The position numbers were made by a program, and so were the translations under genes. The notes under the pieces are model-generated. The model did no database searches. It was given only the letters and a program-made list of their open reading frames with translations, and was not told the origin of the DNA. 64,000 nt of DNA from a virus. Its lineage: Duplodnaviria; Caudoviricetes. Positions 6,001 through 55,551 of the stretch are shown here, piece after piece. The first letter of the stretch is position 1, and every line of letters starts with the position of its first letter. Location: positions 32,001 through 96,000 of IMG/VR virus record IMGVR_UViG_3300028888_001547; one strand, 5' to 3'.

Positions 6001-9000
6001 TTTGACATGTCATCGTCAAACAGTTTTAACATTTCGCTTTCTGTTTTTTCTATAGATTTTATCATAGAACCGAGTCTTGACGTAGATACATCTATACCCA
6101 ATTCTTTTGATATTTCTTCAAGAAGCGTTTTTCTATCCTTTAATCTCTATAAAAGATCTTCACTGTTCAATACAAACCTACTGCTATACAGATGGTTTAA
6201 ATATTGCTCTACATATTCAAGATATGTATGTTCGTGTTCGGCATCATAATTATCAAGATCTTCTTTCGCTTTACTCAGCTACCAATCCTGCGCATTTTCA
6301 TTCTTTTGCAGACTGTCGTAAATATTCTACAATTTCTTTCTACCTGCAGATCTTCTATTTTTATAATCTTGATAAGAATTCCACATCATTTCCATTAAAG
6401 CGTCATATTCTGGATCCATTGCTTCACCAACTGGATTGTCTAAACGACGCATTATTTCACGATAGGTAGAATTTTTTATTTGATCTAATTCATGATTATC
6501 GTTTTCTATATATCTAGAGGCGTCTCTAAGTTGAGTAAGTTTTCTTGCACTCTATATAATAGCTTGCTTATGTTCTTTAGATCCTACAGATATTTCTTTT
6601 TCTTGTAAATACTTTTTGAATAACGGATGTTCTTGTATATAATACAGATTATTTAAAAGCTCTATGTCACGATCTATGTATTCGTCTGTAACCTAATTTC
6701 CTTTAAACGCTTTTAAATCTTCTACAGATTTTCTTAATCTATCTATAGATATACCGTGTTTTTGCAAAGCATCATAAAATATACCAAGATGCTTATCGTC
6801 CTAAGCTTGCCCATAATGTTCACCGATAAGAATGTCCATTACCTTGTCGTTTTTTATTTGAGCAAATAGGTTTCTAAGATTGTCTTTTCCGTTAGATGGA
6901 AATATATTTGATACTGCTTGAAAAGCGCCACCTCCCATCAACATACCTGTTATGCCACCAATCTGCATAGCTCGTCTAAGCTAATGCGATCCGTTGTCGG
7001 GATCTCCAGGCAACATTCCCATATATGCAGCCACAGCATCTGTTGCCAAATTAGTATCTTCGAGAATAGACGCCATTGGCAATAATGATTGTTCTTGGCT
7101 ATATTGATCATACAATCCTCTAGAATATCTACTTTGAAGTAATTCCTGTTGACCTTCTTCTATAGCCTCCAACGAACCTATATATCCAAGCTTTTTTCCA
7201 ACTCTTGTTAAATATTCTAAACTATGTTTTGCAGCAAGCTTATTTCCTATATTATTTAATCCGGAAGAACCAAGTTTACTTATCGTTCTATCAAACAAAG
7301 TTCTTGCTTGCTGTTGGTATGTCTGATCAGCAAGTTTGTTAACTGTACCTTTTCCAAAAGAACGTAAAAAAGATCCAGAATATCCTAAGAATGGCATTGC
7401 CTCTATATAATCCTTTACAGCAAGTGCCATGTTATCATTGTACACCTTCTTTAGTCCCTGTCTACCAGCTTCTTTTTCTTTTTCAAATACAGAATCTTCT
7501 GTATTTATATCATATGCAAGGGCATGCTAAACAAGATCAATATCTGTCATATTTGTAGGATCGATACCCATATCCTATAGATATTCTTTTGTCTTTTCAA
7601 GAACCTTCGGCATATCAGCGCCGCCTTGCATTGATTTTGTAAGTACTCTGGAAGACCACGCATCAATCACTTCAGAATTAGTTTCATGTTCTCTCATTCT
7701 ATTTATAAAGAACATGTTAGAAGCTGTTGTACCTAGTTTTAAACCTAAATCTGTTGTAGCAATTGCATTATTAGTAGATGATATTATTTTTTGAGCACGT
7801 TCTGCCGCTTTTGCTAATTTAGCGGCTTCTTCAATTTTTCCAGCAGCATTAAGCTTACGTAAATCATTAATAGTAGCGACGGCATTTACATATGGATTTC
7901 TTTTTATAGCAAACGTAGCAAGCCTACGAGCAAGTAATCCTGCTGCGGCATCAGAAGTCATCATTGCTCCCATGTTAACAAAATCACTGTATGACGAACC
8001 TGTTTCTGCAATGGAATATAATAATTGATCTGGTAACAATCCTCCAATTATACCAGCATCATTATTCTCAGAATAATATCTAAACTTCGGATTTATTTTT
8101 TGCGGATCAAAATACCAAGATCCGTTTTTATATTTGTTTGCTGTTTCTTTTTCTGCCTATACGCGCTCATCGTACTCTCTGTTCCAATAATTGCGCATAC
8201 TCTTAACCTTTGTCCTAAGCTCTTGAGTATTTCCTCCGTTTCCATTCAGGTTATCCCTATCGTAATCTTTAAACATTGGATCAGTCCAACGGTCATTCTC
8301 TAAACTATGCCGGATTGCTCGGCGCATATAATTTCCATCGGTACCACTATTAATAAGTCTGTTTATACCTTGCTAAACAGAACCAGCTATGTTTCCTATA
8401 GTGGACGAAAATTCTTCTAATCCTGTAATTGGATTATACCAAGCCCCCAGGTTGTGATCCGGACCAAAGTTTTCTGAAAACGCTTTAAAATACTCTTTAG
8501 ATTTAGCAGAATCTGTATCAAAGAAAAGTTGTGCATTTATGTCATTCTTTTTTCCAGTTGTCTTTATCTTCTCCTGGAAATCTGCAATGTTTTTTTCATT
8601 TTGCAAATATGCATCCTTAGCCTTCATGGCATTCTCTGTATCACCAGACTATATTGCTTTTTGATATTGATCAAGCAAACCAGATCTATTATCGAGCATT
8701 TGAGCGTACTTCTCAGCCTCATCCAAAATATTTAAGCTTTCTTTAGCTTCGTTTATTTGGTTGAGTCTGTTCGTCATTTCTGCTTGTAATCTCTTTTCCT
8801 ACCAAAGTCTATATGCATCTTTCACGCTTGCTGCATCCCAACGTTCTTTGGCGTTTTCATAATTACCAAATAAGAAATGCATAGGACCGGAGAATATAGA
8901 TTCTCCTCCTAACTCTTCTGCAGGAATTATTTTTCCTTCTTCTCCTACAGTAGGATAATATTCGTTTGCAATACCTGTATTAGAAAACGTAGAAACGTTT

Positions 9001-13465: not shown

Positions 13466-16400
13466 TCAACTATAAGATTGTCTGAATTTAGTTATTATGT
13501 GTGATATAGTAAGGAATTCTGTTGGATTTGTACTCTTTATATTTACTCTTAGCCATTTACCGCGTATTCTGTTTCCATAACCATCTCCTGTGATATATCT
13601 AGGTATATTATATATCACATTACCTTCCCTATCAGTATACGGTTCCATATTGCCGCTGAACTCTTTATTTATAATATCGCTTTCAAACGACATTACCGCT
13701 CCTTCTAAGAATGCACTATGATCTACTTGTGTGAAAGCATCTCGTTTAATTGGAATAAACTGCTGAGAATCAAATACTTTTGTTACAGATGCCATTGGGT
13801 TTACAATAAAACTAACAGCCAATGGATATAAATACGAAGTAGCTTGTTCTAGATAGTTATGCTTTTTTATATCAAGTTTTTGATGTTCGTTGTCTACAGT
13901 CAAACCATACAGGTGATTCTTTATATATAACATAAAATCATAACGTCTTGTATATATAGAAGTACCGATATTATACTTTATGTTTAGCACCATCTAGTCC
14001 TAACCTAAACATTTACACAACACTTCGTCGTTTTGTAAATCGTAATCTACATGCGGAACATCTGCCGTTATGTATCGATTTACTAAGTTTTGAATATTTA
14101 GTTGTTCTCCTACATTTATTGCCCTACTTTCTGCAAGTGCCGCAATAGCTTTATTATTTATATCTACCCAGAACACTCCTCCTTCAGTTGTTCTAGCGCA
14201 GAAATCATAAAGACGCATTCCATATCTCGTACTTATATAATCATAACGTGACAATATGCCTGCCTGTCCCAACATTATAGTGTTGCTGTTCTGATCATTC
14301 ACAAGAGAACGTTCATTAACGCTGAACCGTCCGCATGCGTGATCTTGCCAGTAATACAACATGTTCTTATCTGTGAGTAGGTTTGTTATTTGTCCGTATT
14401 TACTATCTACATCAATAAAAGATGCTGCTTTGAATATAAGGAAGTTATCTATAAACTCACCATTTGTCTTCAAATCAGAGTAATAAGTACGCTACTTAAA
14501 ACTATTTGTTTCGTTTTTGTCTGTGCTTATTAATGTAAACACATCATTAGAAGCGTCGTTATCAGAATATATCATGTTATACTGATGAACAGGGCGGTCT
14601 TGTGTAGTAACGCCATCTATTTGCCCAGGTTCATATAACAGATTTTCGCTTTGTGTGTTCATAAGATTCATTCCATAATCAAAATAAGTATTTACTTTTG
14701 ATTCAAGAGGAATGTAATTTACAACCTACGTGGACTGGAGTGTATCCATAGAGTTAAAATCATATGCTTTATACATAGTTCCCAACTCATGCGGAGTAAT
14801 ATAAACATCTCCATCAAATACAGTTAGTGTTGTATTATCTTTTGGCGTACCATTTGCATTATACGATACATTGAAATAGTTTCCAAACCCGTAATATTGA
14901 GTAAATTCATCAGATTGAACATCACTTGTCTTTGCTTCGTGAGTTATATTGCATATAGAAGTATAGAAGGCACTAGAATTCAATGGGAATAAACCGGTTT
15001 CGTTCTCAGTAGTAAGTAAGAAACAAGATGGTCCCGCACCTATATATCCTATTTTTACAGCCTGATTATCTTGTGTCATTGGATATACAGCAGCTTGCAA
15101 CCAGTTTCTATATCTTTTTGTTCTACCGTGCATCTCTGCTGAATTTGGACCATCCCCGTCACTTGTAGTATAGTCCATATTAGCCTGACTTTCTTCTCCA
15201 GGCCTTAAATCATATTTTGCGAATGAGACCCAATTGTTGTACACATAGGAGTCAATATTTGTAGTAAAACTCTTATATTTCTTTATGGCTGTATATATAT
15301 CTTCATCTTCGTTTCGTTGTACTTCACTAAATGCTGAACTCCATTCAGGTATCTTTACATCTTTTATTTGATTTACGTCCTATGTACCAAAACCAGAGAA
15401 CGATCCACCATTTGTTTTATAGAAGTTAAATATCCAATGTCTTGCCTATTTTTTGTCAGACGAAAGCTTTTCTACATAAAGTCTATTTATTCCTATTGTA
15501 CCTTCTTGCGAATCATAATCAACAGGAGGTATTCTAGTGTTTACTGTTAATACTGTAGGCTAATATTGAAGATCTACTTTAATTACTATAGATCTATTTA
15601 ACGTTGCCGCTTCGTTTATAAAATCGGTTACATTAGAATGTGATATTATGTTGTCAGAAATGCTCATGACAGGACCAGCTACTAAACTATCTGGCTCAAG
15701 TCTCATAAATTGCACGTCTGTTACGTTTGGATCGTCTACACTAAGTAGTATACTTTGAGCAGATGTACTCAATGGGCCAACTGCGAACATGTTTCCTTTA
15801 CCCTAAACAACTCCAACATTATATGTTCTTGTCGTTTCTTCTGGAGTATAATACGAAGAATTTGCACTTGCTGTCATTGAGTTTGGAAGTGCTCCGTCAT
15901 ATATAGTATCTTTTGTGCTGTTTGTATATTTAGCAAAAACAGAAGATACGTACAGCATTTCTTCTATATTTGTATCAGACGTATTTACTCTGGACAGAAC
16001 ATCATTTCTTCTAAAGTCTATTTCAGATGAAAAAATCTAATATAATTTGTGGTTTCGAGTTCTCGCTCTAAGATCTGCATAATATCCAAGGTCCTGGCCA
16101 TTTGGTGCAGATACCGTTTTACTATAATAATACGACGGAAAAATATACAACCCGTTAACAGACATAAATCCGCTAGGATAGAAAGGAGATTTTTTTGTTA
16201 CACTATCCTATGCATCAGATATTTCTTGTATATTTGTATCAAGTATTGCTTGTGATATTGGTCTAGCTAAAGCAACCTATAGTAATGTTTTTTGATATAC
16301 TTCTGAAGAAGATCTACGAATAACCTAGCAACCTACAATACTACTTATAGCATCTGGATCACCAGTAAGCGTCGGAAGTTGTATTTTTACTCCAATAGGA

Positions 16401-17836
16401 TGGGCCAATAATTTTCCATTTACACATTCAAAAGGACGTGATGTGTTATAATCAGAAATCGCTTTTTCATCTAGACTTATTACATCTGTTCGTCTTCCTT
16501 TATTGTCATAAAATACTAATGCGTATTTATACTTCTCTCCGCGTCGTAAAGATCTTAAGAGACTAGAAGTAATCATATCATTGTAGGAAGCTTTTACAAT
16601 CTAAGGATTTACTCCACGTTCTGTTAAATAACTCAATACGGAAGAACCATCGGAGAAAGTACTATATTCATCTTTATAATAGTGTTTCCCGGGATCAGGT
16701 ATATCTCCATCTATTTTATCTGATAATACAACAGTTGCTGTTATTTCACTTATTGACCCAGCTGTACCAAGGCTTACGTTTTTCAGTATTGTATCGTCTG
16801 TAACATTTCCACAAAACATATATTCCTAGTTCTGTTCTATTGTTTGTGGAATAAGTATAAGACCGGACATTGCGGCAAACTCCTCCATTGAAAGTTTTTG
16901 CAGAGGGTCTATACCAATATCGTTTAATACAAAAGAATTGTTTTGGCTTTTTATATCTCCATCGTATATCAAAGATACTTCTGCATCATGTCCGGGTGTT
17001 ATATAAGATAGTCTATATACTTGTATTTTTTTATATCTGCTAGAATACCCGGTCATATCTATCGACAACGATAATCCAACGGACGTTTCTGTGTTTTCAG
17101 CATTACCTGTCTCTTTTGATCTAGACGAATCAATAACCTATATCTTATTAGTTAGAGGAGCTAATTGAGTGGTATTACCATATTTATTGTAATATCTATA
17201 TGTGTACTATACCTACTATGTTGTAAGTCTTCCAGATATAATATCTGTTATAACCACCCTCTTGTCTGGTATCTCTCTATTATTTATAAGACTATCAATA
17301 GGTACAGGAGTTCCGTTCGTTATATAAGGATGATCCTGTTCATCGTCAACTCTTAAACTTATAATAGGGTCTTTACCAGTAGCTATGTATAGTTTTATTA
17401 CGTTTTCAAGCTCTTTATATAATACAGCTGATATCTTCCCTGGAGCATTTCCTTCCCATACACCGTTTGCAAACCAAACCTACTTAAATTCACTGCATTC
17501 ATTGTTAACTTCGTCAACAGTAAATTTCCATACGTGTAAGTCGCTATCATTTGTAGTAACAACAATAGCTAACTGATCTACAGAACATACTGCAATTATT
17601 CGTTGATTGTTTGATATAGTACCGAGAGAATCTATACTGACGCCACTGGGTACAGGAGTAACAATTCCTTCGTGCACAGAAGAATAGTCACCAGAACTAC
17701 CAAGGAGCTGATTCTTAGTAATTCTAATGTTCTGACCATATATGTATTGCGCGTTGTCTATTTGGTCAAATGCGGTGTCAGAATTCATTCCCTTCGTAAA
17801 CGAGTTTATATAGGAATTGTTCTCATTAGTAACCAT
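13466..17836 (-). CDS. Tail muzzle / stabilisation protein (~1456 aa)
   Basis: N-terminus NSFTKGMNSD and C-terminal RIRGKWL are typical of the crAss muzzle family. Eight track ORFs lie in one frame; TGA at 13466. Confidence 0.8.
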
Positions 17837-43122: not shown

Positions 43123-43617
43123 TTATTGTTTATTTTTTAATAAGGATTCAAGTCTATCTAATGTATCCTGTATACTATCTACTCTCTATGAAAGATCTGT
43201 TATAGCGCTATCCCGTTCTTGCTCTTTAGCATATACTGGATTTAATGTCTTAAGGATCTTTTCATAAGCTACCATATCAGATTTACGCTTATCCATACTA
43301 TCCAATATGTCTTTATTTGATTGTAGAAGCCCGTCTACTTCCGATATCATAGCCTCTTTACTTTCACTAAGAGTATAATCACCATAAGTATGTAATGACA
43401 GACTTGCTGGTACACAGAATTCTTTCTTCTCATCGTCTACGCGTGTCGTTATATCTACTACAGTCTACATATTAGTACCAAGACTAACTGAAGGATTGTA
43501 AGTAGGATACATTGGGCGTGGTGTAGATACATTTTCAACGTACCCGATCTTTACTTCGGGCGTACTCGTCCTATCTAGTATATAGATAGTGGAGCCATTT
43601 CTAAGTGTAGAAAACAT
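43123..43617 (-). CDS. Hypothetical protein (~164 aa); absent from the ORF track
   Basis: MFSTLRNGSTIYILD...LNPVYAKEQERD; two TAGs; TAA at 43123. Confidence 0.65.
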
Positions 43618-43635
43618 AATAATAATTATGCTGTA

Positions 43636-43653
43636 CAGGGGCCGAAGCCCCTG
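43636..43653 (-). terminator. cUUCGg-tetraloop hairpin (stabiliser or terminator)
   Basis: Minus strand CAGGGG-CTTCGG-CCCCTG, intergenic. Confidence 0.55.
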
Positions 43654-43668
43654 AGAGCATATTTTACA

Positions 43669-43974
43669 TCACGCGAAGCGACGACGCATACGGAGACCGC
43701 GGCTTCTATGACCCATACGTTTCATATAAGACTTAATCCCGCTCTCTTCGTCATCGTGGCGGTATTCTTTATCTGATTCAGTTACACCACGAAGGCTCAT
43801 CTCGCCTTCTTCAAGTGAACGTTCTTGTTCATCCATTGACGCATCGTAACAATCGTACATAGCGTTCTCTAACTCACACAAAGTAAGCTTAGTCTTTTTA
43901 GCATTCAGCTTAGCTTCGTCAAGTAGTTCAAACGCTGTCTCATACGCAGCGTCACGCATTTCAATAACTACCAT
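43669..43974 (-). CDS. Hypothetical protein with Arg-rich C-terminus
   Basis: Intact 101-aa ORF within the operon. Confidence 0.6.
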   Translation of the reverse strand: MVVIEMRDAAYETAFELLDEAKLNAKKTKLTLCELENAMYDCYDASMDEQERSLEEGEMSLRGVTESDKEYRHDDEESGIKSYMKRMGHRSRGLRMRRRFA

Positions 43975-44000
43975 AATTTAATAATGTTAAAATGTTAATA

Positions 44001-44333
44001 TTAAGCTGCTACAGCAGAGGTTATCTGCAGTATGCCATTAAATCGATCGTTGAAGACCGTAATAATACCTGTGCCTGTTAAATCGGCAGCGGTTACAGGG
44101 GTTCCATTGAAGAAAGTAAGCGGTCTAGCTGTACCATTCAATGTGAGGGTTATAGGTAATGTCCCTGTAGTACCCTCAGGAATAGCATCCTAGATACGAA
44201 CTGTAAAGTAACCAACAGGTTGAATACGACGGAAACCTAAAGCAAAGTCTACCGCTGTATCAGTTACAGTTACGTTAGTTGTGCTTAAGTATGGAACTCC
44301 ATTTACGTTTGTAGTTACATTAAAGCACCCCAT
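44001..44333 (-). CDS. Small beta-rich hypothetical protein (~110 aa)
   Basis: ATG 44333 (MGCFNVTTN); one TAG; AIPEGTTGTLPI; TAA at 44001. Confidence 0.6.
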
Positions 44334-44344
44334 ATCACTTACTA

Positions 44345-45235
44345 TTAAAATGAAACATTGTTGCTCCAACCATTCCAACCACCGTAGAAACCTCCCATGT
44401 ATGGAGTAGTATTAACTGCGGTCAGTTGAGGCCACTGTACAGGTACTGTATTAGGCTGTGAAGCCTTAATAGTTGCGAGCTCAGTAGCAACATTATTAAA
44501 TTTCTCGTTAATAAATGCAGTCTGGCGGTCATTGTTTATATTAGAACGCAACAGAGCATTGTCAGCTGTCAAAGAGTTGATCTTATCCTGCAGCTCTCTC
44601 TTTTCGAGATCACAGAACTTGTCGTTGATCATTACACTCTGACTCTGTATTGCATCTACGATGTTGCGAGTATTACGCTCAGCCTGTGTGCTCAGCGTGT
44701 TTGTTTGCTGACATACTGCAAGCTGATCGGCTGCTTGATTTGCGGCCATCTGAGACTGCAGTGCGTTGGTCTGGTTGGCAATAGCCAAACGATTCTCACA
44801 GCAGCACTGACAGATCTGGCTTGCTATAGATGCATTACCACTCTGGATAGCGTTCTAAATTTGCAATCCGCTCATGCCCACCTGAGTACCAACAGAAGTA
44901 ATAGCGTTGTTGAGAGTAAAGATACCATTCTGTACAGTGTTTATTTCTGTGTTCAGAAGACCAGCAAGGTCACGAATAGCGTTACCATTACCCTGGATAG
45001 CATTCATAAGCAGTTCACGACCAGAGTCGTTAGCAATCTGGTTAGAGAGGAATCCGTTATTACCGTTTCCGCCCCAGTTACCATTGCCACCCCAGCCCCA
45101 AATAAGCCAGAGGAACAGAATCCATATCCAATTGTTACCACCAAATCCACCATTATTGTTAAGAGCCATAAGCAGATTCGGATCAATACTGTTACTTCCC
45201 ATCTCAGGGAACATCATAATTTTAGAACTTTCCAT
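44345..45235 (-). CDS. Membrane-anchored Gly/Trp-rich, CCC-motif coiled-coil protein (~296 aa)
   Basis: GGNNWIWILFLWLIWGWGGNG and QICQCCCENR. ORFs 44855 and 44345 are joined by TAG. Confidence 0.7.
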
Positions 45236-45306
45236 AGTTTTATTTATCGTTGATAATTAATAGTTTGTTGTTGATAATCCGCATTGTACAGCGCGGAAAC
45301 TGTTTG

Positions 45307-45409
45307 CGCGTGGTGACGGAATCGAACCGCCAACAGGTGCCTCCTTCACTTGCCGCCACAACGCGTTTGCAAGCACTTGTCTCCCGCTTTACCATTAAGC
45401 TAACCACGC
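45307..45409 (-). ncRNA. tRNA-like RNA with canonical acceptor, D and T arms but an enlarged, non-canonical anticodon region
   Basis: GCGTGGT/ACCACGC acceptor; GCTT-AATGGTA-AAGC D arm; GGCGG-TTCGATT-CCGTC T arm; ~54-nt middle region. Confidence 0.7.
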
Positions 45410-45443
45410 AATCCCTATTTTAGACAGTTAGGGTTCTGTTATA

Positions 45444-47342
45444 TTATGAAGATAGTTCAGACATTGCTGACGCTTTACTACTCCAGTATTGAGCTGATTG
45501 ATATGCCGATAACGTACCAGCAGGAACTTTAATATATGTCATACCTCCCAAAGCATTCTAGTTAGCCAAAGTTGGAGGTGTGGTAGCCAGTACAGTTAAT
45601 TTAACACCTTTTGTTCCGTATAGGAAATTTTCACCTATTTCAGTAACGCCAGCGGGTATTGTTAACTCTAAGTTACTACTACCACAATAAGAAAACATGC
45701 CTGATGGCAATTTTGTTATATTCGGGTTTAATGTTGCTGACGACAGCGCCGTACAGGATGCAAATTGACTACCTGTCCCGTATCCTGCATTATAAAACAA
45801 AGACTGTTCTGATATATTAGACAAATCTACACTTTGCAAACTTGTACATTCTTGAAAACAATTTGCACCAAGAGCGATATCCGCATTAAATACAATAGAC
45901 TGTAACGATTTAGCCTTCTAAATACCTTTGTGGCCTATAGTACCACCACCTAAAAATTCTATAGACTATACGTTTGAATTTTCAAAACTTTGCATACCTA
46001 TAGATACTCCATCTTTAAACTAAACGCTTGTTGGAATATTAGTACCACTAAAGGCCGTCATACCAAAATTAGAAACTTTATCCAAGTTTGTAAACGTACA
46101 ATTTTTACAATTTCTAAACGCACTATTTTGTATAGTTGTAGTATTTGCAAAATCAAACGTGCTTGCTAAATTAGTACACCCTTCGAATGCGCTTGCACCA
46201 ATAGACGTTATTCCGCTAACACCTGTAAGAGTAGTAAGATTTGAACAATCTCTAAAAGCTTCTTTATTGATCTGGGTAACTCCTGTTATATCAAGTTGAC
46301 GTAAACTTGTACAAGATTTAAAACATGAGTTAGGTATTGTGTGTCCAACAATATTAGACCAATCTATATCAACTGCTGTTAGAGATGTACAGCCGTTAAA
46401 ACAATCATTACTAATTGTTGTTACATTTGATAAACCAGTAAGCGTAGTTAACGATGAACAGTTCTTAAATGCTTCACCATTCATGGTAGTAACACCAGAT
46501 AATCCGGTTATACTAGACAAATTTGTACAATTTATAAAACAGGTCGCTGGAATTTTATGCGTGTTTGAAGATACATTTATTGACGTAATAAGAGTACATC
46601 CACTGAAATCACTGCCTTCATTATTACTTGTGCCTAACAAAAACTATACATTAGTAAAATTATTACTTGTCAGTTTACTACAATTTTCAAATGATCTCTA
46701 CGCTAATGTTATCTCTCCTGAAAGTCCAGATATAGTCTCTAGATTACTACAACCTCTAAACGCAGACGCTCCTATTTTTTCAAGGCTGCTACTTGCAATA
46801 ACCGTTTTTAACGCAGTACATCCCCAAAATGTTGGATCATTCACATATGTATGTTCATGTCCAATCATCGTAAGATTACTAATATCTATCTCTTCAAGAG
46901 CCGTCCAATCTTTAAAACTATAATAACTAGTTCCTTGTCCGTTCCAACCTCCACTAGAAGATGCTGTTATATTAGTAAAATATCTAAACTCATTAAACTT
47001 AGTAACAGTTGTATTAGCAGTACTTGAATATATGCTAGTAGCGGCTGCAGCCTATGATTCAGTAACCATACCATTGCTACCTACACCTATAGAGTTCAAA
47101 TAAGTAACTATGTTAGGATCTTCAAACTCCATGGCATAATCATCTGCATTGATGTATAGACTAGGATATGTAGATGTCAACCATTGGATTTGGCTTCGTA
47201 TTCCTACAGCACTATGTAATCTACCCTACAAATTACTAGACACATCAAGTCCAGCATGAGCAATCTCATATAGTTTAGTAATCATAGAAGAACTTACTTC
47301 TTCAATTACTCCATTATTTTGTTCTATTCTTAAATGTGTCAT
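45444..47342 (-). CDS. BspA-type leucine-rich repeat (LRR_5) protein (~632 aa)
   Basis: Repeated AFxxCxxLxxI units, FNEFRYFT motif, C-terminal IKVPAGTLSAYQSA..W. Confidence 0.8.
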
Positions 47343-47344
47343 AG

Positions 47345-50300
47345 TTAATTCTCAGTTATTTTATCAAATGTACTAAACGACTTATTATTTGGAATATTTA
47401 CAAGATCCAAAGAATCAAGATTTGCGTAACTATCTACAACAACTCCAGCAGGAGTAAGTACAGTAGGATTAATCAAACTAATACTAGTAGGAGTACCAAC
47501 TTCATATTTAGTAACCTTAGTTCCAGTAGGTACTAATACATTAACTGTAGTACCACTAGCGTCTACCTAAGTCAATTCAGAACATGCAGTAAGATCAATA
47601 TTACCAGTCAGGCCTGTACAGTTCTAAATAGACAACGTCTGTAAACTTGCCATATTAGAGAAGTTTACTTGAGTCTTATCATTATCTTGTATACTATTAG
47701 AAGTATTGGTGAGACTAGCAAATCCGTCAAGAATAATACCAGTTACATTTGGTAAATACTTAAACAAATATGAACCATTTGCAGTAACCAAATTAGGTAA
47801 CGTACTTACATAGTTAGTAAAGTCTATAGTTCCATTCAACGCATACAAATCCATCTTATAAATATAGTTACGTCCAATAGAAGAACCAAACTGTGTAGTA
47901 TAAGCATCGTTTATAGGATTATACAGCACCTGGTTACTTTGTACAATAGAAAGTACATCGTCAGATACAACAAGAGTAGCAGTTGCTGTTATTTCCTTAC
48001 CAGATACAAATCTGGTAACAGCGCTTACTGTATAGAACTCCATAGCATCGTTAGCTGGCATTGCTGCGTCGCAAGAGATGCGTACACCGTGTTTGTTAGT
48101 ATAAGAAGAAGCTGTAATATAATCATCATACAGTTCAGCAAGACCGGCTCCATTACCACCATCAACATAACTTACAGTAGTATTATCCGAGTTACGTTTA
48201 ACGTAATATGTTATTTTATTTACTGTACCTGTGTATGTATCATTTGTATCTACAAAAAACCTAGCACGTTGTCCAGATTGATAGAACTCTATATAATTAC
48301 TTACAGACCTAGGAGCAGCCTATCCTTCATTCTCAATATTAATAAACTGTGATGTAGGATATGTGGCAGCTTGTATGTGGATTACTGTAGAATAATTTAC
48401 ACCTTCGACAGAGCATGTTACCTACACATCGTAATTTGCACCTTCATTAGATTCAGTAGATGTAATATATGCGATTCCATCAACACTCTAATCTTGCTAA
48501 ATTACAGTAAGACCTTTATATCTTCCATAAGACTCGGCGCTCCCTACGGGTCCAATAGCCCATGCGTATTGAGTAGTGTCATCTTCAGCAAGTGAGAATC
48601 TAGTAGCATTAAGTGATGCAGAATTACCTTCCGTAAGAGTAACACCACCTTGTTGATCGATAATAACATTACCACCGATATTAATCTGTACATAATTCCT
48701 CTTATGGTCTACAACAAGACCTGAAGAATTCTTGGTGAATACCGTATCGCCAAACCAACTCTTAATGTTGTTCAATTGTTGAGATGTAAGTTCTGCTCCT
48801 GTGTCTTTGAGTACAACGTAACCTTTTAAGTTTCTTGCATTATTAAGCTGTGCTATAAGAGCAAGTTCATCATATGTAAGAAGATTAATTGCACCAACGG
48901 TATCGTCTCTCCAGTCAATCTTATCCATCTCCAGAGTATACTGGCTAAGATCGGCGTTAGCATCAACAAGATTGTTCAACCAACTACGAACCATCTCCAC
49001 CGACTCAGGAGTTTTACCTGTTGTACCAAGAAGAGATATTTCGTGTACTGTAGTAGGAACTCCACTGCATTTAGTAAATGTAGCTGCGTTATTGCTTCCC
49101 ACTTCAGAATGCCAGAACTCAAGAGTCTGCCAAGACGAGTTGTTTACATAGAATCTATATACCGTATCAGGAATCTCAATCTTAGAGAATGTATTACCTG
49201 ATTCTGAACTATAGAAGTTAGTAAGACCTGAACCTAATGCAAGTACTTGTGAAAGCTCTGTCAAGTTGTTATTATAGATAAGAGCATTGGTATCTGTCTG
49301 ATTACGCTGTCCTCTAATGTTCAAAGACTGCAGGTTAGCAAGAGTATTGGCGTTTGCTTGGATCTGACAACCAAGTACAGCAACAGTACCTGTGAGAGTA
49401 TCACCACTTCCGCTTGTTGTTATACCTACATTTATTCGTTTGATCGGAGAACCAAGTACTTCAGAGTATGCACCGTCAAGCGTTACACCATCGAGACCAA
49501 GTGCTATTTCACTAAGGTCTATCTCTTCCATAAAGTTAGCGCCGTATACAGTAACAGGGTTCTTTGTGTTAGATCCACCAGCAAGATCTCCATATCCTGT
49601 ACCCATGTTATGGGTAAAGATATTACTTTTAGATACATTGAGTGTCGGTCCCCAAGGAGCACCTTCTTTATATATACTCATGTATGTATCCTTTGTTGGA
49701 GTAATTCTGATGGTCTGATTAGATCCCTCCGTTACGTTAGCACGAATATAGATGTAGTGGCTCTTATATTCACCACAGAACCATTTGGCATCGTAGTAGT
49801 CCATAGAGTTGCTCAACCACCAGTGACGGTGAGTCATACGAGAACCCTACAACCAACTCAACCAAGTTGGGTCTCCATTACCAGATTCGATATATTTAAA
49901 GAATCCAGACTTGTTATACATTAACTCGCACCATGCGGCAGCATAATCCTGATCAAACAGTGTTGAAATATTATCATATGTAAGACCTGCATTATACAAG
50001 GCATCTGCTACTTTAGGTACAACTGTATTTGCCCAATATGGCCAAGCCTCAAGAGCATCGAATAGCCAGTTTGATGTTACAACATTTCCGTTATTATCTG
50101 CACTTCTACCAGAGAATGCATACGTAGTAACAGATCCTGGAAGTTTTGTATTACGATCAATAGGAGGCTCGTAAGCAATACCACCATCGTTCTTATTACC
50201 GAGGGCAATATCCATATCCCAAGGCTCATAGTGGAAGTGAACGCCATCGTATGTCTTGATCTGAGCGTTACGTTCCAAAGAGTCGACGAGACCGAATCTC

Positions 50301-54892: not shown

Positions 54893-55450
54893 TTATTGTG
54901 CTTCTTCAGAATCGTTTATCGATTCCACCGCTGCCTCGTTTGCGGGCTCAGAGTTTGTAGTCTCGACTTCTGTTTCCGGAAGACTCTGAGTAGCCGTAGG
55001 TGCGCTTTCGTTTATATTGTCAGTAGACCCATAACCGCCTTCTCCACGGTCAGTCTCACTGAGTGTATCACTCTCCTCAAACTGTACATCAGGTACTGGG
55101 AGTATAAGGAGTTGACAAAATCTTTCACCTTCTTTATATATAGCAGGTACAACATCTGTTGTAGCTCGCATCTTGGCCATTACTTCACCACGATAATCAG
55201 AATCAATTACACCAATACAATTAGTAAGTATAAGAGATTTCTTTGAGATAGATGAACGAGGAACAAGAGCTCCAAAATAACCTTGAGGAATCTCTACTGC
55301 AATATCAGTATGATATACAAGGACAAGCTGTCCACACTCGTTAATCTCTGTTGTGATTCGTGTACATGTCAAATCGAATCCAGCATCTGTGGCATGTGCC
55401 TTTACAGGTGCGATTGCATTTTCTGAAAGTCTTTTAAATTTAATTACCAT
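54893..55450 (-). CDS. dut: Trimeric dUTPase with acidic C-terminal extension
   Basis: AGFDL, PRSS, GVIDSDYRG and RGEGGYGST motifs. Start placed at 55450 because the longer track ORF overlaps the tRNA. Confidence 0.92.
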   Translation of the reverse strand: MVIKFKRLSENAIAPVKAHATDAGFDLTCTRITTEINECGQLVLVYHTDIAVEIPQGYFGALVPRSSISKKSLILTNCIGVIDSDYRGEVMAKMRATTDVVPAIYKEGERFCQLLILPVPDVQFEESDTLSETDRGEGGYGSTDNINESAPTATQSLPETEVETTNSEPANEAAVESINDSEEAQ

Positions 55451-55474: not shown

Positions 55475-55551
55475 TGGTTGCCCAGTCCGGTTCATCTCCA
55501 GATCTTCCGGGGTTAGAGCCCGACGTGCTAGGAATCATACACCACTAAGCA
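55475..55551 (-). tRNA. Amber suppressor tRNA (anticodon CTA), probably Gln-accepting
   Basis: TGCTTAG/CTGGGCA acceptor with a T1-A72 pair; TCGGG-CT[CTA]AC-CCCGG anticodon arm; encoded CCA; atypical D and T loops. Confidence 0.85.

Follow-up and report, generated by a model that had tools for sequence, protein, structure and literature searches.

A tRNA-shaped, non-decoding RNA flanked by two pseudoknots is a candidate processing mark in a late operon of a crAss-like phage

What occupies the one large gap in a densely packed late operon of a rumen phage, and why does it have the shape of a tRNA that cannot decode? The window analyzed here is a stretch of 64,000 nucleotides, bases 32001-96000 of a 106.6-kb virus record (IMGVR_UViG_3300028888_001547). 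Among named phages, the closest to it are crAss-like members of the Suoliviridae (~71% nucleotide identity across one gene), and the phage is present in public sheep and cattle gut metagenome runs. TAG is a sense codon here; the longest open frame grows from 506 to 1837 codons when TAG is read through. With TAG translated as Gln, the minus strand from 37.5 to 53 kb is a densely packed late gene block encoding the large terminase subunit, a tail fiber protein, an 1811-amino-acid (aa) protein, a 632-aa leucine-rich-repeat (LRR) protein, and a 296-aa protein. The 208 nt between the last two genes form the sole large gap of the operon from 37.5 to 52.8 kb. The upstream BspA-type LRR protein is probably a tail fiber or receptor binder. 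The tRNA-like element in the gap is co-oriented with both flanking genes, and a scan for sigma-70-type signals found neither a sigma-70-like promoter nor an intrinsic terminator on its strand at the gap. The features are collected in Table 1.

Table 1. Positions of the tRNA-like module, its flanking genes, and two further tRNA-shaped elements in window coordinates
Feature	Position	Strand	Remarks
Upstream gene, 632-aa BspA-type LRR protein	45444..47342	minus	8 in-frame TAG; stop TAA 45446-45444
PK-U, upstream H-type pseudoknot	45413..45439	minus	3 nt upstream of tRNA-like RNA
PK-U, S1	45439-45436 with 45427-45424	minus	
PK-U, S2	45433-45429 with 45417-45413	minus	
PK-U, loop 3	45423-45418	minus	A-rich
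5' spacer, 3 nt	45410..45412	minus	ATT; U at -1 of predicted RNase P site
tRNA-like RNA, 103 nt	45307..45409	minus	Rfam RF00005, anatomy, 13 relatives
Acceptor stem, 7 bp	45409-45403 with 45314-45308	minus	
D arm	45400-45386	minus	4-bp stem, GG-containing loop
Anticodon-stem remnant, 5 positions	45384-45380 with 45340-45336	minus	
39-nt insert	45341..45379	minus	replaces 7-nt anticodon loop; compensatory changes in both inner helices
Variable loop, 4 nt	45335-45332	minus	
T arm	45331-45315	minus	5-bp stem, TTCGATT loop
Discriminator G	45307	minus	no encoded CCA after it
3' spacer, 3 nt	45304..45306	minus	CAA; after discriminator, predicted RNase Z side
PK-D, downstream H-type pseudoknot	45278..45303	minus	3 nt past tRNA-like RNA
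PK-D, S1	45303-45300 with 45291-45288	minus	
PK-D, S2	45297-45293 with 45282-45278	minus	
A/U-rich leader of 296-aa gene, 42 nt	45236..45277	minus	apparently unstructured
Downstream gene, 296-aa protein, PHROG 16490	44345..45235	minus	Gly/Trp-rich N-terminus; ATG at 45235; one in-frame TAG at 44857-44855
Candidate amber suppressor tRNA (CUA)	55551-55478	minus	CCA at 55477-55475
Second tRNA-like element, 61 nt	55743-55683	minus	acceptor 6/7 pairs, canonical T arm, discriminator G

Rfam places the RNA read from 45409 to 45307 in the tRNA family RF00005, with 43.8 bits against a cut-off of 29 and a full match to model positions 1-71, in which 47 nt stand where the model expects 15. U8, A9, and G26 are present, and the tertiary nucleotides of the elbow and core are kept, namely, G18 G19, the T-loop TTCGA, and the Levitt pair 15-48. 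An earlier note on this DNA had described canonical acceptor, D, and T arms without an encoded CCA, and the Rfam score and the anatomy confirm this. It had also held that the anticodon and variable regions were replaced, which is right for the 7-nt anticodon loop only: the five-pair anticodon stem is retained in its canonical register, and the variable loop is of normal size (4 to 6 nt). The element thus has no 7-nt anticodon loop, no U33 (position 33 is an A), and no usable anticodon. ARAGORN in standard mode reports no tRNA in the window, and its intron-mode call, a tRNA-Val with a 9-nt intron, is forced and not credible. Folding of single sequences gives no useful signal, with z-scores of -0.64 (module) and -0.59 (gap at 55.6 kb).

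Several known classes of RNA were considered for the element. It is not a tmRNA, as pair 3-70 is G-C or C-G rather than G3.U70, and neither ARAGORN nor Rfam reports a tmRNA in the window. Nor is it a plant-virus 3' tRNA-like structure, being internal, with an ordinary 7-bp acceptor and no CCA. An intron reading fails as well: the insert falls short of group I intron length, and whichever part is excised, a U33-type loop does not result. What the element does share with t-elements and mascRNA-type RNAs is a non-decoding tRNA-like fold on the sense strand between transcript bodies.

To establish how the element varies, we assembled 53 loci carrying the 296-aa gene from pattern scans and a protein-anchored scan of IMG/VR. 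The tRNA-like family comprises 13 distinct sequences, of which six carry the long insert and seven a shorter one, here called "medium", all from ruminant crAss-like phages and all at the same gene boundary. Pairs were counted in regex-segmented sequences; MAFFT misaligned the 3' acceptor strands. All 91 acceptor-stem cells of the 13 relatives are paired, and more than one pair type occurs at six of the seven stem positions; in the T stem, 63 of 65 cells are paired and three positions covary. Position 13 of the D stem switches between U-A and C-G, and pair 27-43 occurs as G-C, G-U, or A-U. The tertiary Levitt pair is A-U, U-A, or G-C in 9 of the 13, and two positions of the anticodon stem are invariant and non-standard, A.A and A.G. 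Compensatory changes of this kind rule out a decaying tRNA gene and indicate that the L-shape is selected.

In the insert, a purine-rich asymmetric internal loop leads to a 6-bp helix, which an AAA bulge separates from a 3-bp helix capped by a hexaloop. Compensatory changes are found in both helices of the long hairpin and in the short hairpin of the medium form. Covariation supports the inner pairings that had been drawn previously, TTGC/GCAA and CGC/GCG, and runs counter to one of the outcomes that were to have refuted the earlier note, a decaying tRNA with no covariation in the insert. The outer helix proposed at the same time, ACAAGTGC/GCACCTGT, does not hold up: of the 65 cells for its outer five pairs in the 13 relatives, 16 do not pair, its changes fall on the 3' side only, it contains an A.C mismatch in all six long-insert sequences, and as drawn it would use up the variable loop. 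No variation is seen across long and medium versions in either the 5' or the 3' strand of the internal loop, or in the A.A and A.G pairs. A K-turn, Shine-Dalgarno mimicry, and a CsrA-type GGA were each considered by eye for the internal loop, and each is rejected; the medium versions do not preserve the motif.

At the same boundary in other relatives, the content of the slot differs. Some loci hold a minihelix, made of a 7-bp acceptor, a ~10-nt GG-containing linker, and a T arm, with neither D nor anticodon arm. Others have a tandem pair of elements, a tRNA whose 6-bp stem is bulged and whose loop has 9 nt, or a tRNA with an 8-nt loop. Five loci (L020, L023, L045, L055, and L057) have no tRNA-like element there. 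ARAGORN accepts none of the slot elements as an ordinary tRNA, save for two forced class-II readings. Common to all of them is only the half made of acceptor, T arm, and elbow, the part read by RNase P, RNase Z, and the CCA-adding enzyme. As acceptor sequences and discriminators vary, no aminoacylation identity is conserved. PK-D is missing in some relatives, and together with the element-free loci this shows that the module is dispensable. The loci with the bulged 6-bp anticodon stem and conserved 9-nt loop (L025, L071, L072, L209, and L219) carry, after the tRNA, a structured region of ~130 nt with a second D-arm-like segment.

Outside the clade, a search of 185,579 prokaryote genomes with a pattern for the junction of D arm and insert gave no true homologue among the matches listed, and a pattern for the T arm alone was too unspecific. 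Two unrelated viral contigs, L013 (3558-3646) and L019 (4928-5007), have tRNA bodies whose anticodon region measures 33 to 60 nt, so tRNA mimics with a replaced anticodon also occur beyond this clade. The full record of the phage (G000) contains three further tRNA-shaped elements outside the window, at 16018-16095, 16492-16568, and 105531-105611 (L008, L009, and L007), with oversized or irregular anticodon loops of 6 to 11 nt.

A conserved hairpin in place of an anticodon loop suggests that the small RNA itself may be functional, with the tRNA body acting as a natural "tRNA scaffold" through which the 39-nt insert is processed and protected from nucleases. Working in trans, the insert would then sequester a protein as a sponge, serve as an aptamer, or lure away tRNA-targeting defences or tRNA-binding enzymes as a decoy. 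Exactly the anticodon loop is replaced while the register of the stem is kept, both inner helices covary, and the internal-loop strands and non-standard pairs do not change. The architecture is that of engineered tRNA scaffolds, in which cargo is placed where the insert sits here, and phage tRNAs that counter anticodon nucleases exist. The payload, however, varies: minihelix versions have none, and medium versions have only a 3- to 4-bp hairpin. A late structural operon would also be late for counter-defence, and the variable acceptor identity means that specificity for a single synthetase or toxin is not conserved. We regard this explanation as unlikely, if one to be taken seriously, and it could operate with the RNase P and RNase Z cuts of the processing mark discussed below.

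The tRNA-like RNA is bracketed by two H-type pseudoknots of one design, with an identical four-base S1, a 5-bp S2, and an A-rich third loop. The downstream one, PK-D, had been described in the earlier note at 45303-45278; the anatomy agrees, and compensatory changes occur in relatives. PK-U, on the upstream side, was absent from that note and was found in this analysis; it begins 4 nt past the stop of the LRR gene, and 3 nt separate its end from tRNA position 1. A scan of the whole genome for the pseudoknot design gives 7 instances against 3.25 +/- 2.1 in shuffled sequence, so that a single instance alone is not significant against chance. Those that are conserved and covarying are the two that bracket the tRNA-like RNA, and within this genome the motif flanks only the element at 45.3 kb.

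For PK-U, 14 distinct sequences are paired in 93.7% of cells, and four of nine pairs, one of them in S1, change on both sides; two rows whose loop is one base shorter count against the structure through alignment only. The covariation score is reached by none of 500 shuffles, and controls with slid positions drop to 24 to 52% paired. Two further relatives, read by eye, have another complementary version of S1. In a scan of IMG/VR with the PK-U consensus, true pseudoknots came only from this locus in this phage clade. PK-D occurs in relatives in three versions of S1 and at least six of S2, all self-complementary, and always ~40 to 70 nt before the ATG. The spacing between PK-U and the tRNA-like RNA is 0 to 5 nt in relatives, with mostly U at -1, and PK-D usually lies 3 to 4 nt from the predicted RNase Z site. 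In other clade members, the slot is flanked by PK-U on one side and by PK-D or another hairpin on the other. Rfam gives no match up to E = 10 between 45000 and 45700 to preQ1-I or other small pseudoknot riboswitches, which were rejected as candidates.

The position of PK-D, at -68 to -42 relative to the AUG of the 296-aa gene and followed by an unstructured A/U leader, raises the question of whether the tRNA-like RNA matters at all. PK-D could mainly be a translational or stability operator of that gene and the tRNA-like RNA an evolutionary passenger, either tRNA-derived filler or a recombination linker where tail fiber modules are swapped. Consistent with this, PK-D persists without any tRNA-like element in L020 and L029, and the content of the slot turns over fast while flanking genes are exchanged. 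For a passenger, however, one would not expect acceptor pairing to stay complete while so many compensatory changes accumulated, or the tertiary 15-48 pair to be maintained. PK-U, moreover, is seen only beside tRNA-like elements, which ties the two together, even if three tRNA-like loci have no PK-U within 600 nt. We consider the operator-and-passenger explanation distinctly improbable.

Could the element instead serve the altered genetic code? A non-canonical decoder or release-factor antagonist that aids the reading of TAG as glutamine would suit a phage with sense TAG codons, in whose genome ARAGORN finds no CUA tRNA. This possibility is close to refuted. The element at 45.3 kb has no CUA anticodon, and its insert contains neither CTA nor a U33-type loop. 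In-frame TAG is found in the flanking genes of each of these phages, even where the slot holds a minihelix or is empty. Moreover, a candidate CUA suppressor tRNA is encoded elsewhere in the window, and this, together with the equally recoded relatives, argues that the 45.3-kb element is not the suppressor.

That candidate has an intact acceptor stem, D stem, and anticodon arm with a CUA loop, but its D loop lacks GG and its T loop is non-standard; it scores 24.6 bits in Rfam, below the cut-off of 29, and is missed by ARAGORN. Relatives have a canonical CUA tRNA with encoded CCA in the same place, directly upstream of the dUTPase gene, which ARAGORN detects at six loci. The dUTPase of the phage studied here probably starts at the ATG at 55450 rather than at 55495. 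The tRNA marks the border of TAG-free and TAG-recoded gene blocks and sits between co-oriented genes, so that tRNA release is already needed at that site if the genes are co-transcribed. The full record also encodes tRNA-Gln(UUG) at 8014-8085 and tRNA-Gln(CUG), with a mismatched 31-39 pair, at 101745-101818, both outside the window; they may bear on the reading of TAG as glutamine.

Close to the CUA tRNA lies the second, shorter tRNA-like element, in which acceptor and T arm are joined by a 29-nt linker with one hairpin. An 8-bp hairpin precedes it and long hairpins follow. It is kept in L108, L177, L340, and L347, the mismatched acceptor position being a swapped purine pair in L347, and no Rfam model matches it. 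The same layout as at 45.3 kb had been claimed for this site. A tRNA-like element can indeed be drawn there, but the "pseudoknot" said to start with ACAG is absent from L108 and L177. By sequence, the two elements have a theme in common, a tRNA-like RNA between two hairpins, and differ in layout.

We therefore return to the gap itself. Three observations lead us to a tentative preference, held at somewhat less than even confidence, for the reading that the element is a non-decoding tRNA mimic, a punctuation mark for RNase P and RNase Z that would leave pseudoknot-capped mRNA ends. The L-shape is selected, and only the half read by these enzymes is universal; the element lies within an operon, on a strand with no promoter-like or terminator-like signal at that point; and compact pseudoknots stand a few nucleotides from both of its borders. 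The earlier note had suggested a processing tag that leaves a protected 5' end on the downstream RNA. That suggestion fits the anatomy, the strand, and the position in the gap, but is incomplete, as a pseudoknot would cap the new 3' end of the upstream mRNA as well.

In the proposed mechanism, the substrate would be a late, TAG-recoded tail-gene transcript of a crAss-like phage. Host RNase P would read the L-shaped body and cut between 45410 and 45409, and RNase Z would cut after the discriminator at 45307, where no CCA is encoded. The mRNA of the LRR protein would then end in PK-U plus ~3 nt, a single-stranded tail presumably too short for 3' exonucleases. The mRNA of the 296-aa gene would start ~3 nt before PK-D, with the A/U leader behind it; PK-D would shield the 5'-monophosphate end while the start site stays open. 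The two halves of the operon could thus differ in stability and yield. With its anticodon loop capped by a hairpin, the freed 103-nt RNA would be unable to enter decoding and would be either a harmless by-product or the carrier of a second function.

Counting against this mechanism is the conservation of the insert. A pure cutting mark would need neither the insert nor the A.A and A.G pairs, yet these are conserved and the hairpin covaries; minihelix relatives do without the insert. A combined explanation would make the locus a bacteriophage counterpart of MALAT1/mascRNA, with pseudoknot caps at both mRNA ends and, in addition, a released tRNA body that displays variable cargo acting in trans; this seems to us a long shot.

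A search for the RNase Z family gives a match in all 14 control genomes, including Bacteroides thetaiotaomicron, and passes the curated cut-off in 9 of them. Metatranscriptome contigs from four sheep-gut RNA runs were compared to positions 43600-47400; such contigs give no ends, strand, or level. In one relative, a single 1.2-kb contig runs from the upstream gene through PK-U into the tRNA-like RNA, of which it covers the first two thirds, with DNA carry-over possible. The contigs also differ in depth between the two flanking genes, a contrast that may reflect conservation only.

Our full-text literature search turned up no account of either tRNA-like RNAs or pseudoknots in Crassvirales. A 2026 preprint describes some recoded crAss-like phages as seemingly lacking a detectable suppressor. 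The crAss-like phages are among the most abundant gut viruses, and post-transcriptional RNA regulation in them is almost unknown. If the punctuation reading is correct, the module would be the first candidate signal for processing and stability in crAss-like late operons. The element also reveals a whole class of selected tRNA-shaped phage RNAs that tRNA finders miss. At ~160 nt the module is small, and its flanking pseudoknots could serve as portable mRNA end-protectors.

Other structured RNAs were noted in the course of the analysis. On the plus strand of the window, a GOLLD-like RNA at 63452-63865 matches RF02032 over the full model length (85.4 bits, E = 1e-20, below the gathering score of 150), and a type III hammerhead ribozyme candidate at 62109-62167 scores 43.4 bits (E = 4e-6), just below the gathering score of 48.5. 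Outside the window, ARAGORN calls a permuted tmRNA at 105039-105420 of the full record, which Rfam does not support.

Among known systems, canonical tRNA has the acceptor, D, T, and variable regions and the elbow nucleotides in common with the element, which lacks the 7-nt loop, U33, and anticodon. The leader of phage T4 gene 32 mRNA begins with a 5' H-type pseudoknot followed by an A/U-rich operator, and its processed 5' end, made by RNase E, lies just upstream of the pseudoknot. Similarly, PK-D lies ~40 nt upstream of an AUG and is followed by an unstructured A/U-rich leader. The downstream protein here, in contrast, is not a single-strand-binding protein and is not known to regulate itself, and the predicted enzyme is RNase Z rather than RNase E.

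Two further parallels come from outside the viruses of bacteria, and if the punctuation reading is correct, the module would be their bacterial-virus equivalent. In the MALAT1 and MEN-beta transcripts, a triple helix is followed by the tRNA-like mascRNA; in MALAT1, cleavage by RNase P leaves this helix as a protected 3' end on the upstream RNA, and RNase Z frees the mimic (PMC8457004). MALAT1/mascRNA (Rfam RF01684) likewise has a compact, A-rich tertiary structure directly upstream of a tRNA mimic. However, PK-U is a 27-nt H-type pseudoknot instead of a U.A-U triple helix, there is a second pseudoknot on the 3' side, and the two have no sequence relationship. The t-elements of plant mitochondria are tRNA-shaped and non-decoding, and cuts by RNase P and RNase Z at these elements set the 3' and 5' ends of mRNAs (PMC1920247). 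In plant mitochondria and haloarchaea, as in the mitochondrial tRNA punctuation model, a non-decoding tRNA shape likewise stands between coding regions of one transcript. The phage module differs from these in its bacterial host, its phage carrier, its predicted cleavage, and the two dedicated pseudoknots that flank its tRNA-like RNA.
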